Source of the DNA: Candidatus Anderseniibacteriota bacterium
GTDB lineage: Bacteria; Patescibacteriota; Andersenbacteria; UBA10190
Reading direction: 5' to 3'
Assembly: GCA_040876835.1 (NCBI GenBank)
Contig: JBBDOX010000010.1
Coordinates: 8,230 to 72,229 of the forward strand
DNA: 64,000 nt
The notes below the pieces were generated by a model. That model saw only the letters and a program-made list of their open reading frames with translations. It did not search any database and had not been told where the DNA came from. Shown here one piece after another: positions 29,275 to 36,404 of the stretch. Numbering within the stretch: position 1 is the first letter of the stretch; every line of letters begins with the position of its first letter. Made by a program: the position numbers and the translations under genes.

Positions 29275-31041
29275 ATGGCCGAAGCATCAAACCAGCAGCC
29301 AACGGGGCCTACTTCGCAATCTTCATTGCCTGTTGGTCCTCCGCCACCTCCTGTGAGACCCGCAGCAGCTTCTGAGCCGCAGCCTACAAACGAACCTATA
29401 CGCCTTCCTGTCAAAGAAGTAGCTATCCAAACCATGAAGGACGACCTGGGAACCGCCAGTAGCACTTTCCAGGCTTCTGCGGCTCCTTCTACGCAGGGGA
29501 AACCCCTCTCAGCCCCACAACAACCACTCCCTTCTCCTAGCTCTCTACCTTTGCAAGCTCGCAATAAGTCCGAACAGGGCGTTCAGCAGCCTGCAAAGAA
29601 AAAAGGAAGCCATAAAGGGCTGATCATTGCTCTTTTCCTCGGAGTGTTACTTGCTATTGTTGGAACCAGTGGATGGTATATATGGTCCCGGTTCTCGGGA
29701 GAAAGCGGTATTGCTCCTCAATCTACCAGCACTCTATCTGCCGCTGAGATGATTCCTGAAGATGCACGTGTAGTTATAAGGTACCAGTTTACAAATCCTC
29801 AGGATCGCATCGCTTTGCAGGCTATGTGGCAAACAAGCGGAGCTGATAGCTCCACCCCTCTGGGGGATCTCGTTGCCGGAAACCCCATACTTCTTTTGGA
29901 AGTACAGACTATTCAGGAAGTGATGTATGTTCTACTTCCTGACAATACTCGACCATTTATGGTGGTGCCAAGAACAGCAGAAACAGAACAGTTATTGACT
30001 ACAGAAAGCGGAGTCCAGGTTTCGTCTGTAGAGAATTGGATTGTTGCTCACCCGATCAACGCCGGGCTGTATAAAGAAAGTCTTTCACTTGGCTCTCAAG
30101 CCGCCATAGGTGGTTTGCCAGCCTTAGCAGGCGATTCTCATCTCCAGTTTCTTATACAACAGGAGGAATTACAGCAGCTCTCTCAAGCAAAGGCATTTCC
30201 AGATGTAGCATTCTTGCCGAGTCAGACAAGTATTGCTTTGCAGGGAAAATACGATACGGCAACCAATAGCATTCTCTTTACAAGCGGTTCGGATTTCATA
30301 GCTGGCACAAGCACTCCGCTAAAGGAAGGGTTTGTGCCCTTAGTTCCAGCTCAAAGCACGTTTACGCAATTTGGTACGAATTTACAGGAAGACATTGCCA
30401 GCTTGTCGGGGCAGAAGAGTATAGATATTGCCGTACTTGAACAGCCCGCCGTACAACAGTTTGTATCTCAACTCACCACTCCATATGTATATTATCGCTA
30501 TACTAGTCAAGCAGGAGCTGAGAACGCAGCGCTTATTATAGGGTTACCACAGAATACTGCCGCAACACTTGGTCTTGGGGATACCGCGATCGAAACAGGC
30601 CTACGAGCGTTAATTCCTCTGATTGCCGGGCAGGGTAGTGCTACAGTTCCTCAACTAGCGTTTGCTACAGGGGAATACCGTTCAGTGCCACTGCGATACG
30701 TAAACCTCTCTGGCCAAGATCAGGCTATAGACTATGCGATTATAAATAACTACCTGCTCGTAGCATCCTCGAAAGACAGCATGTTTGAGCTTATAGATAC
30801 TATTCTAGGTACCGCTCCGGCCTTGGTTAACGAGGAACCCTGGAGAACGGTAATTGCGCAAGGTGGAAATGCAGTCTTTGGTGGGCCAACAATTATAGAC
30901 AATGCTGCTGCTACCTTCTTATCAACGCTACTTCCCTCAAACCCTTCGGGACAGTTTCCCTTTGTAGTAAGCAGACAAAGAGTCGGAGACAGCGTAATTC
31001 TACAAGGCGTACTGTCTCTTTCTGATCAGGTCGCCCGCTAG
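29275..31041 (+). CDS. hypothetical membrane-anchored surface protein (Pro-rich N-terminus, single TM, large ectodomain)
   Basis: 588 aa. PPPPVRPAAASEPQP low-complexity region, TM GLIIALFLGVLLAIVGTSGWYIW, then an approximately 450-aa domain with no known motif. Confidence 0.45.
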   Translation: MAEASNQQPTGPTSQSSLPVGPPPPPVRPAAASEPQPTNEPIRLPVKEVAIQTMKDDLGTASSTFQASAAPSTQGKPLSAPQQPLPSPSSLPLQARNKSEQGVQQPAKKKGSHKGLIIALFLGVLLAIVGTSGWYIWSRFSGESGIAPQSTSTLSAAEMIPEDARVVIRYQFTNPQDRIALQAMWQTSGADSSTPLGDLVAGNPILLLEVQTIQEVMYVLLPDNTRPFMVVPRTAETEQLLTTESGVQVSSVENWIVAHPINAGLYKESLSLGSQAAIGGLPALAGDSHLQFLIQQEELQQLSQAKAFPDVAFLPSQTSIALQGKYDTATNSILFTSGSDFIAGTSTPLKEGFVPLVPAQSTFTQFGTNLQEDIASLSGQKSIDIAVLEQPAVQQFVSQLTTPYVYYRYTSQAGAENAALIIGLPQNTAATLGLGDTAIETGLRALIPLIAGQGSATVPQLAFATGEYRSVPLRYVNLSGQDQAIDYAIINNYLLVASSKDSMFELIDTILGTAPALVNEEPWRTVIAQGGNAVFGGPTIIDNAAATFLSTLLPSNPSGQFPFVVSRQRVGDSVILQGVLSLSDQVAR

Positions 31042-31098
31042 AGCCTGATTTAGCTGACGACTTGGAGCCTCTAGTATACACTGAGGCTTTATCTGCCT

Positions 31099-32340
31099 AT
31101 GCGTCTTAGTAATAAAAAAATTGCAATATATATTGCCACTGTTTTAGGAACCACCTTAGTGGTAGGCATACTGCTTTTCTTTTCTTTAAATCGGTCATCG
31201 TGGTTCTTGTTAGGTCTTTTATCAGAAAGCGCTCCATCCTCGCTGACTATAGGGATCAAGCGTCCCACTAATATTTTTTCTGAAAAATTTGAACATGCGT
31301 TAGTACCAGCAGCAATAGTAAATAATAAGTGGCATGCGTATGTGATAGCTCAAGAGGGAGGTAAGGTTTCTGTAGCGGGGGTGGTGAACCCGTTCCATGC
31401 AAAGGAGGTAGCAGAAAATCTGCAAAGGGCTGGAAAAACTGTTAAGCGAATTGGGTGGACCATAGTTATTGCAAAGGAGGGGGAATTAACGCAAGGTACA
31501 TGGCAATATCTTCAGAAAGGAATAAGCAGTTTGGCGCTTCATGTAGCTAAGTATAGGTTTCCGATATGGCCAATGGCTATTGCGAGCATACAAGAGAAAC
31601 AAGCTCCCTATGTTAAATCTGATGTTGTGGCTATGCTTTTGCACGACAATAGAGGAGAGCGCTTAATTGCGAAGGAGCATACTCGCAATTTTGGGGAACT
31701 CAAAAGCGGTTTAGAAAACGGAAGCGAATGGGGCTCATCAATAACCCCTGCGGAAGCAGTAATGGTGGCAGGCTTATCAAGTTTAGAAGTACTCCCAGGT
31801 GCAGTAAAAGATCAGTTAAGCGCATATATAGCAAACCGCTTTTCCTTTACTCATACACGCCCCGCCTTTATAGCGACTATAACCACTCCTGAGCGGGTTG
31901 TATTACTCGCAGAGGGTGAAGATACAATCCTGGGGCTTCAAGGGGCCTCAGAAGCCAACGTGGCAGAGCTGCAGAGGCTTTTTGAGGCAGAAGCTGCTTA
32001 CGATTACCCACAAAGACACACATTCTTACTTCCTGATCGCACGCTTGGATATGAGTACATTCCGAATATTGCGGAAGTCGTCATAGAAGATAGTGCTGCC
32101 CATTCTGCGTGCAAGGCTTTATCTATGCATGGTAGTAAAGTGTGGATATGCAACCAGGCCAATATGCTGTTCGTTACCACATCAATATCCCTGATCGAAC
32201 GAGGGACAGCGTTTCTTTCTGAAAAACAAGAAAGACTAGAGATCACTGACCCCACGTTACTTACTGCGTTCTCAAATTTTGCCCCATCCTTCTTCTTTAC
32301 CAAGACAGAAGAATTTAGCGAAATGAGAATAGGAAAATAG
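31099..32340 (+). CDS. hypothetical N-terminally anchored protein
   Basis: 413 aa. N-terminal TM (IAIYIATVLGTTLVVGILLFF). No motif matches. Confidence 0.4.
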   Translation: MRLSNKKIAIYIATVLGTTLVVGILLFFSLNRSSWFLLGLLSESAPSSLTIGIKRPTNIFSEKFEHALVPAAIVNNKWHAYVIAQEGGKVSVAGVVNPFHAKEVAENLQRAGKTVKRIGWTIVIAKEGELTQGTWQYLQKGISSLALHVAKYRFPIWPMAIASIQEKQAPYVKSDVVAMLLHDNRGERLIAKEHTRNFGELKSGLENGSEWGSSITPAEAVMVAGLSSLEVLPGAVKDQLSAYIANRFSFTHTRPAFIATITTPERVVLLAEGEDTILGLQGASEANVAELQRLFEAEAAYDYPQRHTFLLPDRTLGYEYIPNIAEVVIEDSAAHSACKALSMHGSKVWICNQANMLFVTTSISLIERGTAFLSEKQERLEITDPTLLTAFSNFAPSFFFTKTEEFSEMRIGK

Positions 32341-33640
32341 ACTGTACGTGCCTATACATAGAGACTAACAGGAACACGCAAGTATCAAAACCGATCCCCT
32401 ATGCTTATAGGACTTGGCCAATAGACCCTAGCAATAAGAGAGATAACACCAGCAGAACTTTACATAGAGCAGTACTCAGAAACCAAACCACTTTTCTGTA
32501 TGTGCTTTCTTGTAAGGCAACACAGGAAAGAAAAGGTAGGGCAAGGGGTAAGGCTAAGACAAGGGTTGAGGAACGCTTTGAATCGGGAGCCTCTTACTAG
32601 AATGGAGAAAAATCGAGGCAAGAGTCGGCGAGAGTACGAGAAGTTCTTCTATAATCAAGTCGCAGAAGGAGGTTTATGGAAGGCTATCCATAAATTGAAA
32701 GATCTAAAAGACTTTTACAAGAAATAACCCAGCGTCAGCTGGTCGTAAGGGGCAGAAAGTAGGATCTCTACAGGTATGTGTGTGGGAAGCGAAGATGTCT
32801 ATCGTGTTGTGCGCCTGAACTTCACGTCTCCTGCGCAGTAGTTTAAGAAAGAGACCCAAAAGACAGACCTATCCTAAGATTTTCAAGCAGGGGAAGGGTG
32901 TAAAGAGGGAATAAAATGCATACAGTAAAGGAACATATGATCGTATTTATTGCGGGTAACATATATGTTCAAAAATCATGTTCAATCGCTTTACCGAGGG
33001 GTAAAAACATGCTATACTTCACCTATCACTAAGCACTCTCGGGCGCTTAGGAATACAAAAAAGCGAAACAAACAGCCACCACGACCCTGAAGAGAATACC
33101 TCGCGTATAGCATGCAGGGTCGACACAATTCCTGAACACTACAACTGAATATCCACACTTCTACTAAGGGGACGGGGGGCGCGGTTAGGGAGTATTTCCC
33201 CCTATACTCCCTAAGCGTGCTTCCCTAACTTAGGAGAAGTACATCCTCCACTTTGAGGACGTGGTGACCTACGTCGCCCTCAAACATCAAACATAAAAAC
33301 GTTCAAACACACGGTTAGAACATTTGTACTTTCTAGCAGAGATGGTTACATCAGCATCAAACTACATTAAGATGAGTAACCGGAACTGCAATCAAGGTGA
33401 AGGAACATTCCATTTCGTAGGATGTGGGATAGATGCACTTAGTCCTTGCTTGTAACATTGGTAATAATGGTCGGTGCTGGATCGGTTCCAGCTTCGTGAA
33501 AGCGGTTCGTCACCGACCATTTTGCCTTCGGGCGAGGGCCTTACAGGTCCGCACGGTCAATTATTTATTTTTTGCCGGATGTCGGGCCTGTTTCATTTTA
33601 TTGAAAGCGTTATAATAGTATCTATTGATTTTGAATATAT

Positions 33641-34000
33641 ATGTCTATGAATAACGACTCAGCTCACTCTCGCGAATTTATCGAAGAAATGAAAAAAGCT
33701 CTATTAAGAGAAAGACAGGACATTAGCAGCGAACTGAAGGGACTTGCCCATAAGGAGAAAGGAGACTTTCAAGCGAATTTTCCCGACTATGGCCGTAATG
33801 ATGAAGAGAGTGTTTCTGAGTTTTCTGACTATGAGGCAGCAAATGCTACAACTGAAGCCATAGAGGCTCGTCTAAAAGATATTGAAGCTGCTATTGAGCG
33901 CATTGAGCGGGGCACATACGGAACTACCGATGAGGGAGAAATTATTCCCGAAGCTCGCTTGCGAGCTAATCCGGCAGCCACCACCCTTGTTGGTAAGTAG
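33641..34000 (+). CDS. DksA/TraR-family-like protein lacking the zinc-finger cysteines
   Basis: 119 aa. Coiled-coil N-terminal half, then IERIERGTYGTTDEGEIIPEARL, which resembles the DksA C4 region (RIEDGTYGxCExCGxxI) with Cys replaced by T, D, E. Confidence 0.4.
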   Translation: MSMNNDSAHSREFIEEMKKALLRERQDISSELKGLAHKEKGDFQANFPDYGRNDEESVSEFSDYEAANATTEAIEARLKDIEAAIERIERGTYGTTDEGEIIPEARLRANPAATTLVGK

Positions 34001-34454
34001 GTCAACGGTTTTTATCTTGATCGCTATTCTTCTTCTTGCAGGAGATTTTTGGGCTAAGCAGTATTTCTTTGATCACAAAGACCAAGCCTATTCGTTGCTA
34101 GGCAGTCAGCTGGTTTTGCAATTTCAAGCTAATGAGGGCTTGCTAGCAGGGTTGTCTTACTCTCAGGGGTTATTAATTGGAGTTATTTGTCTGAGTATTT
34201 TCTTTGGGTTGCTCATTATCGATTCGTTTAGGAAGAAGAGGAGAGAACCGCTAGTACTCGTTTTATTAGGCGGGCTAGGGAATATGTTCGATCGAGTTAC
34301 GCATGGGCAGGTGATTGATTACATACACCTTAACCGACTGGAGTATAATATTGCAGACGCACTGATTGTTATTGGAGTAGTATGGTATATTCTCACTCTA
34401 TTTTCGGTTAACGATAGTTTGGCTAAAGATATGCGAAAGAGTGAGCAGTTATAA
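33930..34454 (+). CDS. lspA: lipoprotein signal peptidase II
   Basis: Conserved LspA motifs GGLGNMFDRVTHGQVIDYI and YNIADALIVIGVV, with four TM helices. The start is uncertain. The track start is TTG 33882; ATG 33930 is chosen here; either way it overlaps the upstream gene in another frame. Confidence 0.65.
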   Translation: MREKLFPKLACELIRQPPPLLVSRSTVFILIAILLLAGDFWAKQYFFDHKDQAYSLLGSQLVLQFQANEGLLAGLSYSQGLLIGVICLSIFFGLLIIDSFRKKRREPLVLVLLGGLGNMFDRVTHGQVIDYIHLNRLEYNIADALIVIGVVWYILTLFSVNDSLAKDMRKSEQL

Positions 34455-35464: not shown

Positions 35465-35538
35465 CGCACCCGTAGCTCAATTGGATAGAGCGTTGGTCTT
35501 CGGAACCAAAGGTTGCACGTTCGAGCCGTGCCGGGTGC
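35465..35538 (+). tRNA. tRNA-Arg (anticodon TCG)
   Basis: Hand-folded. Acceptor GCACCCG/CGGGTGC, anticodon stem TTGGT/ACCAA with loop CT-TCG-GA, T-arm GCACG-TTCGAGC-CGTGC. Confidence 0.85.
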
Positions 35539-35543
35539 ACTTA

Positions 35544-36131
35544 TTATATCAATTCTGTTTTCTCCAGAACGTGGTAAAGCAGAATACTAGTAGAGAGCGC
35601 GACGTTGTGAGAGTTGCCCAGACCAAGGATGGGAATTTCTACAATATGATCAGAAAGATCCAATAGCTCCTGGCGAACCCCTTGGCGCTCATGACCTACT
35701 ATGATTGTTAATGGTAAGCCATATTGCTGAGCCGATAGCTGATGATATGGAATGCTCTTATCGGTTTGTTCTAAAGAAACAACAGTATTACCCTGCTCTT
35801 TTAGCTGCTTAATAAGGGAAACTGGATTCTGGATATACTCCCATGGTTGGTGGGGCAGGGCGTATACGGCAGTTTTGGCAATGCGATGCTCGTGACGGGC
35901 AATAAGTGCCATTGGTCGATCATCGCGCTGTATGCGGGGATGGCCTGTGTAGCCTGTCAGATATATTTTTTCAAGCCGAGCAGTTTCACAAAGGCGAAAG
36001 AGCAAGCCCACATTATCGAGACTGCGCACGTTATCTGTAACTATTGAAATAGGAACACGCCTCATAGACGAAAGCATATCTGGTGCTGGACGTTCATTCA
36101 CTAGATCTTCTGTTGTTTTCTTTGTAACCAT
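35544..36131 (-). CDS. SpoU/TrmH-family RNA 2'-O-methyltransferase (SPOUT)
   Basis: 195 aa. C-terminal SPOUT knot motifs IIVGHERQGV and EIPILGLGNSHNVALSTSILLYHV. Confidence 0.75.
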   Translation of the reverse strand: MVTKKTTEDLVNERPAPDMLSSMRRVPISIVTDNVRSLDNVGLLFRLCETARLEKIYLTGYTGHPRIQRDDRPMALIARHEHRIAKTAVYALPHQPWEYIQNPVSLIKQLKEQGNTVVSLEQTDKSIPYHQLSAQQYGLPLTIIVGHERQGVRQELLDLSDHIVEIPILGLGNSHNVALSTSILLYHVLEKTELI

Positions 36132-36136
36132 TTATC

Positions 36137-36211
36137 TGGGGCGACTAGAGGGAATTGAACCCTCGTCACCGGGACCACAACCCGGGGCTTTACCACTAAG
36201 CTATAGCCGCC
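36137..36211 (-). tRNA. tRNA-His (anticodon GTG) with encoded G-1 and CCA
   Basis: Minus strand reads G-GCGGCTA..CCGGG-TTGTGGT-CCCGG..TAGTCGC-C-CCA. The extra 5' G pairs with discriminator C73, the His identity feature. Confidence 0.85.
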
Positions 36212-36277
36212 ATGGTAGGCGTTTTTGCCTAAGATTGTAGCAATTTACCATATTTTCTGGTAAAAACAAGAAATCGC

Positions 36278-36351
36278 GTGCCTGTAGCTCAGTTGGATAG
36301 AGCGAGCGGCTTCTACCCGCTAGGTCGTAGGTTCGAATCCTACCAGGCACA
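36278..36351 (+). tRNA. tRNA-Arg (anticodon TCT)
   Basis: Hand-folded. Acceptor GTGCCTG/CAGGCAC, anticodon stem AGCGG/CCGCT with loop CT-TCT-AC, T-arm GTAGG-TTCGAAT-CCTAC. Confidence 0.85.
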
Positions 36352-36404
36352 CCGTGGAGGGAAGACATCTAGAACATTTAACAACACAGACAGGGAGAAT
36401 TGCC

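Follow-up and report, generated by a model that had tools for sequence, protein, structure and literature searches.

How does a tiny, streamlined genome come to hold some 1.3 kb of DNA with hardly any reading frame between two protein-coding genes? The question is raised by positions 32341–33640 of a 64,000-nt stretch from a Candidatus Anderseniibacteriota bacterium of the phylum Patescibacteria (contig JBBDOX010000010.1), the whole of which is referred to here as the window. This region separates the gene of a 413-aa protein (p413) from a dksA-like gene and lspA. A first-pass annotation made from the sequence alone had described it as hairpin-rich and free of open reading frames (ORFs), and had proposed that it holds either one or more structured non-coding RNAs (ncRNAs) or a decayed element. 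Here we show that positions ~33025–33600 of the forward strand are the gene for a highly structured ncRNA of ~575 nt that belongs to an uncatalogued family. The RNA is conserved across Andersenbacteria and is probably also present in other ultra-small Patescibacteria.

A conserved, covarying RNA gene upstream of dksA and lspA

The lack of coding capacity is as the first-pass annotation had it: between 32340 and 33641, the only ORFs of at least 60 aa lie at 32500–32727 (75 aa) and 33433–33615 (60 aa). The hairpin sequences cited in that annotation are located at the positions given for them. The gap is part of the gene order rpsO, NYN, pnp, p588, p413, gap, dksA-like, lspA and histidine kinase, which is kept in 11 related genomes. 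Because a search with p413 recovered no relatives, PNPase was used as the query for them; the related loci compared with the window are labelled L001–L113. In all 11 genomes the gap between p413 and dksA measures 580–1310 nt, and no ORF is common to these gaps.

Alignment of the 11 gaps reveals a block of ~600 nt that is present in every one of them, while the flanking p413 protein is only 20–32% identical across the same loci. An nhmmer search with the resulting gap profile gave E values of 1e-119 to 1e-178 in the 11 Andersenbacteria loci, a single copy within the window and no match in 65 other Patescibacteria or outgroup loci. Scanning 241 million metagenome records for the pattern of invariant positions returned 22 matches, comprising eight true copies, of which four were new and distinct, and 14 chance matches, nine of which are one unrelated gene end. 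Look-ups of dksA homologues added four more divergent copies (L104–L107). In all, the distinct homologues number 21, with a median pairwise identity of 58%; 20 of them were aligned and underlie all covariation statistics given below. Wherever the contig of a homologue extends far enough, the RNA is followed immediately by the dksA-like gene and lspA; this includes L106 and L107, where a DinG-like helicase takes the place of p413 and the order RNA, dksA, lspA is retained. An independent assembly of the same organism, from Logan (L001), ends within the RNA gene, at window position 33228 and 2 nt past hairpin H3 (described below); possible explanations are differences between strains and trouble in assembling the inverted repeat.

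Thermodynamic stability delimits the same block. The segment 33024–33606 folds at -204.3 kcal/mol, compared with -155.4 ± 6.7 kcal/mol for shuffled sequences (z = -7.34; none of 100 shuffles is as stable), so that the description of the region as hairpin-rich holds for its 3' part and fails for positions 32341–32950, where no excess of structure is seen (z = +0.50). The latter segment is a purine-rich, unconserved spacer that lies outside the RNA and contains the orphan 75-aa ORF. No similarity links it to the matching spacer of L002, the closest relative (85% identity in PNPase), or to the other loci compared. We therefore treat it as a fast-evolving spacer and not as part of the RNA. The possibility of a pseudogene or protein remnant in 32341–33030 was examined and rejected: a six-frame Pfam search gave no match, a 100-aa open frame of the spacer has no homologue among 5.8 billion proteins, and neither blastn nor tblastx detected similarity in L002, in any other locus or elsewhere in the window. 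The translated search proposed in the first-pass annotation is thus empty of pseudogene remnants.

Selection on an RNA fold is supported by covariation, another check that the first-pass annotation had put forward. On the 20-sequence alignment, RNAalifold predicts 106 base pairs, 77 of them with compensatory changes, and a loop–loop contact between hairpins H5 and H8, added by a separate scan, raises the number of pairs counted to 112. Canonical combinations fill 93.3% of the cells of these pairs, as opposed to 79.0% in column shuffles and about 40% with slid partners. Pairs changed on both sides number 82 of the 112, far above the 43.1 ± 3.5 obtained from column shuffles (0 of 500 reach 82) and the 31–39 from slid partners. 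Ten or more helices carry abundant compensatory changes, and a single-sequence fold of the window RNA recovers the same helices. In addition, a covariance model of the core from which L107 had been left out finds that sequence at 66.7 bits, and it scores the single window copy at 137 bits.

Nothing in the region suggests coding. Across the 20 homologues, the variation shows no three-base periodicity and no ORF is shared, and only 21% of gap runs are divisible by three. One candidate, a TTG-started ORF of 43 aa (33324–33455) that recurs at one alignment column in 10 of the 20 homologues, was discarded: its ends are variable, periodicity is missing, half of the members do not have it and no Shine-Dalgarno sequence precedes it. 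Taken together, positions ~33025–33600 almost certainly encode a real, selected, structured RNA. The structured ncRNA foreseen in the first-pass annotation is hence borne out by covariation and fold stability for this part of the region and not for the whole 1.3 kb. In place of the small lineage-specific RNA envisaged there, we find a single ~575-nt molecule of ten or more helices that is Andersenbacteria-wide and probably reaches beyond.

Architecture of the RNA and candidate relatives in other Patescibacteria

The RNA gene is preceded by a sigma-70-type promoter at 32990–33018 (-35 TTTACC, a 17-nt spacer and an extended -10 TGCTATACT), with a predicted start at ~33025. This is the sole promoter match on the forward strand within 32300–33700. 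In each of the 12 genomes inspected initially, and in most of the later homologues, a promoter of the form TTGACC/TTTACC-17-TGnTAYAMT occupies the corresponding alignment position, with TGCTAYAAT as the extended -10 of the conserved block; the -35 box is degenerate in L092, L104 and L105. A conserved A-tract precedes the promoter in the 11 aligned gaps, and upstream of the -35 box the columns of a ATATGTTCAAAAA element (32962–32974, forward strand) are invariant or near-invariant in the 11-genome alignment. Its role could be that of an UP element or of a site for a regulator.

All structural elements lie on the forward strand. At the 5' end, a tentative helix P1 would close the core domain by pairing UAUCA (33024–33028) with 33430–33435; its five pairs are 98.8% canonical, one shows a compensatory change, and the helix is absent from the RNAalifold prediction on the 20-sequence alignment. 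The hairpin H1 (33029–33050, CUAAGC...GCUUAG) is present in the minimum free energy (MFE) fold and, judged by eye, its stem varies yet stays paired (CUAAGC/GCUUAG, CUCAG/CUGAG, CUUAAGG/CCUUAAG). It is followed by an A/C-rich single strand, linker 1 (33051–33082, ACAAAAAAGCGAAACAAAC...), which keeps its pattern of A residues and is unpaired in the consensus. Hairpin H2 (33083–33121) joins GACCCUGA to GCAGGGUC around a conserved loop, GAGA..CGCG.A..GCA, with eight pairs, six of them compensatory and 95% paired.

The long hairpin H3 (33173–33226; 20 pairs, 10 compensatory, 93.9% paired) contains an invariant CGUGCUUCC. Its tip is the perfect 11-bp hairpin TTAGGGAGTAT(TTCCCCCT)ATACTCCCTAA at 33185–33214 to which the first-pass annotation had drawn attention. 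The adjacent CCTAA/TTAGG pairing listed with it is not one of the conserved pairings: as written it has a 1-nt loop, and it lies in a variable stretch. At the base of H3, the invariant GUGCUUC(C) of the 3' strand (33217–33224) can pair with 33174–33183 or, alternatively, with a downstream GAAGUAC (33236–33242), a partner that varies only in pairing-preserving ways. These alternative pairings may constitute a conformational switch.

The centre of the molecule is organized by a long-range helix, H4, in which CCUCCACUUUGA (33245–33256) pairs with UCAAGGUGAAGG (33392–33403) through 12 pairs (eight compensatory, 93.8% paired). The junction closed by H4 accommodates hairpin H5, a long single strand rich in A and C, and the nested helices H6 and H7. 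The 5' side of this junction (33257–33278) begins with GGACG, which is near-invariant (1 of 20 sequences has GGAAG), and continues into H5 (33263–33278; GGUGA/UCGCC), whose five pairs are 100% paired with four compensatory; the GACGT/ACGTC hairpin that had been proposed here is not the conserved pairing. Next comes linker 2 (33279–33335), which is conserved, unpaired and A/C-rich, with a conserved UUUGUAC box. Beyond it, H6 (GCAG/CUGC, 100% paired) encloses H7 (GUUAC/GUAAC, 96.7% paired, four of five pairs compensatory) and a variable tip that is deleted in L005 and L105; together they span 33336–33389 and are followed by the conserved GGAAC-YGCAAU. Just outside H4 stands hairpin H8 (33408–33429), all seven stem pairs of which are compensatory.

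The loops of H5 and H8 are complementary across the long-range helix. In the window, CCUACG (33268–33273) kisses CGUAGG (33416–33421) through six pairs, four of which are compensatory, with 91.7% paired overall. The partners differ by lineage, namely CUGCU/AGCAG, CCUACG/CGUAGG, CCGAC/GUCGG and CUGGCC/GGCCAG. CUGCU/AGCAG is the form found in most relatives, and its central pair is changed on both sides in the window, L085 and L105. These changes look separate, since the closest relative, L002, retains the common form.

Downstream of H8, the 3' strand of the tentative P1 and a conserved AUGCAC.UAG occupy 33430–33440. Besides the long peripheral hairpin H3, the RNA is completed by a second such hairpin, H9, and by a stem at its 3' end that runs into a U-rich tail. 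H9 (33441–33540) extends over ~40 bp, with 37 pairs in three segments, 30 of them compensatory. Its distal part is the 8-bp stem GGTCGGTG..CACCGACC (33469–33518) already pointed out in the first-pass annotation, and the GCC-TTCG-GGC bases at 33524–33533, read there as a tetraloop hairpin, are assigned by the family consensus to lower H9, as its 3' strand. The terminator-like element at 33545–33600 pairs AGGUCCGCA (33545–33553) with UGUCGGGCC (33580–33588) around a U-rich internal loop (33559–33575) and ends in a U-rich tail. All eight of its stem pairs show compensatory change, and the T-rich run at 33563–33575, listed at the outset as a T-tract, turns out to be the U-rich loop inside it. On this basis, transcription is predicted to terminate here; L104–L107 carry textbook stem and U-run terminators at the matching position.

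Candidate relatives outside Andersenbacteria are suggested by structure and context. Among the best non-family matches of the core covariance model (R1) are L017 and L053, both on the right strand and in a non-coding stretch just upstream of dksA with a promoter on one side and a terminator on the other. L017 scores 20.7 bits (E = 0.0026 in 47 kb and 0.06 in 1.08 Mb), L053 16 bits and L109, a relative of L017, 12.4 bits. Five further dksA–lspA loci were taken blind, and four of these have gaps of 500–1370 nt with a TTGACx-17-TGnTAnnAT promoter, three of the four with a clear, strong terminator. The distant ncRNAs identified in this manner are 320–480 nt long, lie directly upstream of dksA–lspA and are bounded by a promoter and, in most, by a clear terminator, such as the strong canonical GGGCC-UUCG-GGCCC-U9 of L113. 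The candidates are located at L017:12577–12940, L053:5415–5826, L108:2444–2955, L109:~1965–2343, L110:~2096–2500, L112:1810–2218 and L113:~2088–2472.

H4 is recognizable in these RNAs as well. Its signature, ACUGUUC and GAAYGGU separated by 50–220 nt, is found in L017, L053, L108, L109, L110 and L113, which account for 6 of the 11 matches in 2.7 Mb of searched strands; the other five are scattered. MFE folds of the distant RNAs present an H4 loop with a small hairpin and a long A-rich linker at the position of linker 2, then a long hairpin and the terminator. In L017, L109 and L053, hairpins H5 and H8 flank H4, and their loops are complementary (CCGAC/GUCGG and CUGGCC/GGCCAG). We consider it likely that these three are homologous to the window RNA. 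The core model finds no match in the dksA-upstream RNAs of L108, L110 and L112 and a weak one of 6.6 bits in L113; membership of these four is judged from the H4 signature, architecture and context only, and the chance that they are homologous is even or slightly better. Overall, the distant RNAs and the window RNA probably form one wide family.

Three additional loci with dksA–lspA present other arrangements. L061 (16880–16960) and L064 (7850–7950) share a conserved element, AAUAAGGACGACGCUUGCCGUGGUACCACC, upstream of these genes, within which UAAGGACG is identical to the junction following H4 in several Andersenbacteria copies (GAGGACG in the window). This element could be a much-reduced form of the RNA, or of a different nature. 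In the Magasanikbacteria locus L023 (1885–2441, reverse strand), a TTGACA-17-TGCTATACT promoter is followed by ~500 nt of structured non-coding DNA and dksA–lspA, with no H4 signature.

The RNA belongs to a new class by every test applied here. Rfam 15 (4227 models) at gathering score, the scan that had been suggested at the outset, identifies only six tRNAs in the window, and tRNAs only in 18 related loci. Lowering the threshold to E ≤ 10 yields four chance matches in 32200–33800 (12.7–21 bits against cut-offs of 55–63) and noise only in the distant members L017 and L113. The models covered include RNase P, tmRNA, 6S, SRP, OLE, GOLLD, ROOL, raiA, HEARO, T-box, riboswitches and hammerheads. 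Phage and plasmid collections contain no similar sequence, and we found no description of such an RNA in the literature. A hammerhead ribozyme was considered from CUGAUGAGA in H2 and rejected, given that its CUGA is base-paired in the H2 stem, about half of the sequences read GUA where the hammerhead core would require GAA, and no Rfam hammerhead model matches.

In overall character, the RNA most resembles OLE (RF01071), GOLLD, ROOL, raiA and HEARO, which likewise combine ~600 nt, many helices and invariant nucleotides with restriction to a single bacterial lineage, and are retained beside particular protein genes. It differs from them in matching none of their models in sequence or structure, in its host phylum, Patescibacteria, in its long A/C-rich single strands and in the H5–H8 kissing loop across the long-range helix; its partners are the dksA-like gene and lspA, whereas those of OLE are oapA/B/C. 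To our knowledge, very few bacterial RNAs longer than ~400 nt covary to this degree, namely the rRNAs, RNase P, tmRNA, self-splicing introns, OLE, GOLLD, ROOL and HEARO, and each of these large RNAs has turned out to be a ribozyme, the core of a ribonucleoprotein (RNP) or a striking RNA assembly.

Mode of action

What might such an RNA do? We favour, with a probability of roughly 55%, a stand-alone, abundant RNA of a new class that acts in trans and is genetically tied to dksA–lspA without being their leader. A discrete and abundant transcript would be made from the near-consensus extended -10 promoter and would end at its own terminator, both ends being predicted from sequence. This stable RNA would then act in trans, most likely as the RNA part or scaffold of an RNP whose role is linked to the neighbouring DksA/YlyA-like factor, which would bind RNA polymerase, and/or to LspA. 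Leaky termination may also feed dksA–lspA, as 6S RNA does for ygfA in Escherichia coli. We prefer this reading because the promoter is of the stable-RNA type, the terminators covary and are often very strong, the spacers before dksA are variable (5–370 nt) and in many members hold a separate extended -10 box, and the size and complexity of the RNA exceed those of any known leader. Such boxes and long spacers precede dksA in L085, L087, L092, L104–L107, L017, L108 and L112.

A more far-reaching form of this proposal is that the window RNA founds a new class of large 'ornate' RNAs of 320–650 nt (expanded to ~575 nt in Andersenbacteria) that extends across the Patescibacteria, working in trans as an RNP with the DksA/YlyA-like factor and/or LspA. 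We put this forward only tentatively. In this scheme the RNA might regulate RNA polymerase in the manner of 6S RNA, though with an entirely different architecture, or it might be associated with the membrane as an RNA of the OLE kind.

Several observations weigh against a stand-alone RNA. The 5' and 3' ends of the transcript are themselves predictions. Adjacency and co-orientation with dksA–lspA are strict even where the gene upstream differs (L106, L107, L108, L109 and L112), and strict linkage of this kind is the classic signature of a cis-regulatory leader. Furthermore, about half of the Andersenbacteria copies have a C-rich spacer of 6–8 nt between the terminator stem and the U-run, which implies a weak terminator. 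These same copies (for example, the L007 type) reach the dksA ATG within ~20 nt and offer neither a Shine-Dalgarno sequence nor a convincing promoter before it, and for that reason dksA may depend on read-through.

It is accordingly possible, at odds that we place well below even, that the RNA is a giant cis-acting 5' leader or attenuator of dksA–lspA, which would sense a protein, the state of RNA polymerase, a tRNA or a small molecule and gate read-through. Beyond the invariable position directly upstream on the same strand and the weak terminators and closely following ATGs just described, such a leader would account for the terminator-like element between the RNA and dksA, and the two mutually exclusive helices formed by the invariant GUGCUUC are switch-like. 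Absence of the RNA also coincides with absence of lspA from this position. Where no RNA gap exists and dksA abuts the upstream gene (L077:13301–15202, L019:13328–15310, L057:12494–14369 and others), lspA is absent after dksA and a comM-like Mg-chelatase gene follows directly, while the gap-bearing loci compared (L053, L061, L064, L023, L002, L012 and L016) all have lspA; L111 is an exception, with lspA present and a gap of only ~250 nt.

The general layout of promoter, structured RNA, stem and U-run, and gene, together with strict linkage to one downstream operon, is shared with terminator-type leaders such as riboswitch, T-box and ribosomal-protein leaders. Against this, the window RNA is two to five times larger than they are, and an RNA of 320–650 nt with ten or more helices far exceeds known riboswitches and T-boxes in size. 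No antiterminator competing with the terminator stem was found, the sole alternative pairing seen being that involving H3. Several members combine very strong terminators with an unconserved spacer of 55–370 nt and a separate promoter with an extended -10 box before dksA, and the near-consensus promoter with its UP-like tract is as expected for stable RNAs. A T-box in particular was rejected on structure and conservation: the likeness is limited to the UGGAACCGC box, which recalls the T-box UGGNACCGCG, no T-box (RF00230) or riboswitch model matches, and the downstream genes are dksA-like and lspA, not genes for an aminoacyl-tRNA synthetase or for biosynthesis.

We regard as improbable a third explanation, namely that the RNA is a housekeeping RNA (6S, RNase P, tmRNA or SRP), or its functional analogue, so diverged in Patescibacteria that the Rfam models miss it. 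A strong, constitutive-looking promoter, a single copy and conservation in reduced genomes would suit it, and a factor expected to bind RNA polymerase lies next door, in keeping with a 6S-like role. The absence of any match among the 4227 Rfam models (at E ≤ 10 for the window region and two distant members, and at gathering score for 18 loci) is joined by structural disagreement with each candidate. ARAGORN reports six tRNAs and no tmRNA in the window, and the RNA has no tRNA-like end. In RNase P RNA, CR-I (GAGGAAAGUCC) and CR-V (ACAGAA..GGCUUA) form the P4 helix and P1 joins both ends of the RNA; here the CR-I and CR-V sequences are absent, the consensus topology differs and neither RF00010 nor RF00011 matches. 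The consensus contains no SRP domain IV. As for 6S RNA (ssrS of E. coli), it too has its own sigma-70 promoter and a protein gene (ygfA) directly downstream on the same strand, and a link of the window RNA to RNA polymerase through its DksA-like neighbour would be a further, purely conjectural likeness. However, 6S RNA is a rod of ~185 nt with a central bubble, which mimics an open promoter, whereas the window RNA is three times longer and branched; its consensus consists of a branched core and continuous hairpins, H9 having small bulges only, and RF00013 does not match.

Finally, it is very improbable that the region is a gene in decay, the remnant of a mobile element or a small protein gene that escaped annotation, even though the gap is unusually long for this genome and the 43-aa ORF recurs, because no spacer frame has protein homology or a Pfam match, phage and plasmid similarity and repeats elsewhere in the window are lacking, that ORF has variable ends, no Shine-Dalgarno sequence and no counterpart in half of the homologues, and what is conserved is not codon periodicity or indels in multiples of three but compensatory base changes.

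The tiny, streamlined genomes of Patescibacteria spend ~600 nt at this locus behind what is apparently one of the strongest promoters of the region, an outlay that implies an important role. The fixed partnership with the dksA-like gene and lspA, and the apparent joint loss with lspA, suggest a role in the control of transcription, the maturation of lipoproteins or the biology of the envelope, in organisms of which hardly any have been cultured. The alignment and covariance model would allow the family to be annotated across thousands of metagenome-assembled genomes.

Neighbouring genes

The dksA/ylyA-like gene (33641–34000, forward strand) encodes 119 aa, or 117 aa from a second ATG, with a weak match to PF01258, no zinc-finger cysteines and no Shine-Dalgarno sequence. 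Its product is identical to the NCBI entry 'hypothetical protein WD200_01840, Candidatus Andersenbacteria'. The DksA-like proteins of Andersenbacteria lack all four zinc-finger cysteines, while homologues in other Patescibacteria (for example, L017:13111–13461) retain the CxxC...CxxC arrangement. None of the Andersenbacteria dksA-like genes has a Shine-Dalgarno sequence, and several are apparently leaderless. The following gene, lspA, encodes lipoprotein signal peptidase II (PF01252, E = 1.8e-18); the ORF as listed covers 33882–34454 on the forward strand, and the true start is probably later than the listed one.

Upstream of the gap, p588 and p413 (29275–32340) encode membrane-anchored proteins with no Pfam domain that evolve very fast, being 44% and 32% identical, respectively, to their L002 counterparts, compared with 85% for PNPase. 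Further downstream, a tRNA cluster (35466–36353) comprises tRNA-Arg(TCG), tRNA-His(GTG) on the reverse strand and tRNA-Arg(TCT), and a 195-aa ORF is located on the reverse strand at 35544–36131, between tRNA-Arg(TCG) and tRNA-His(GTG).

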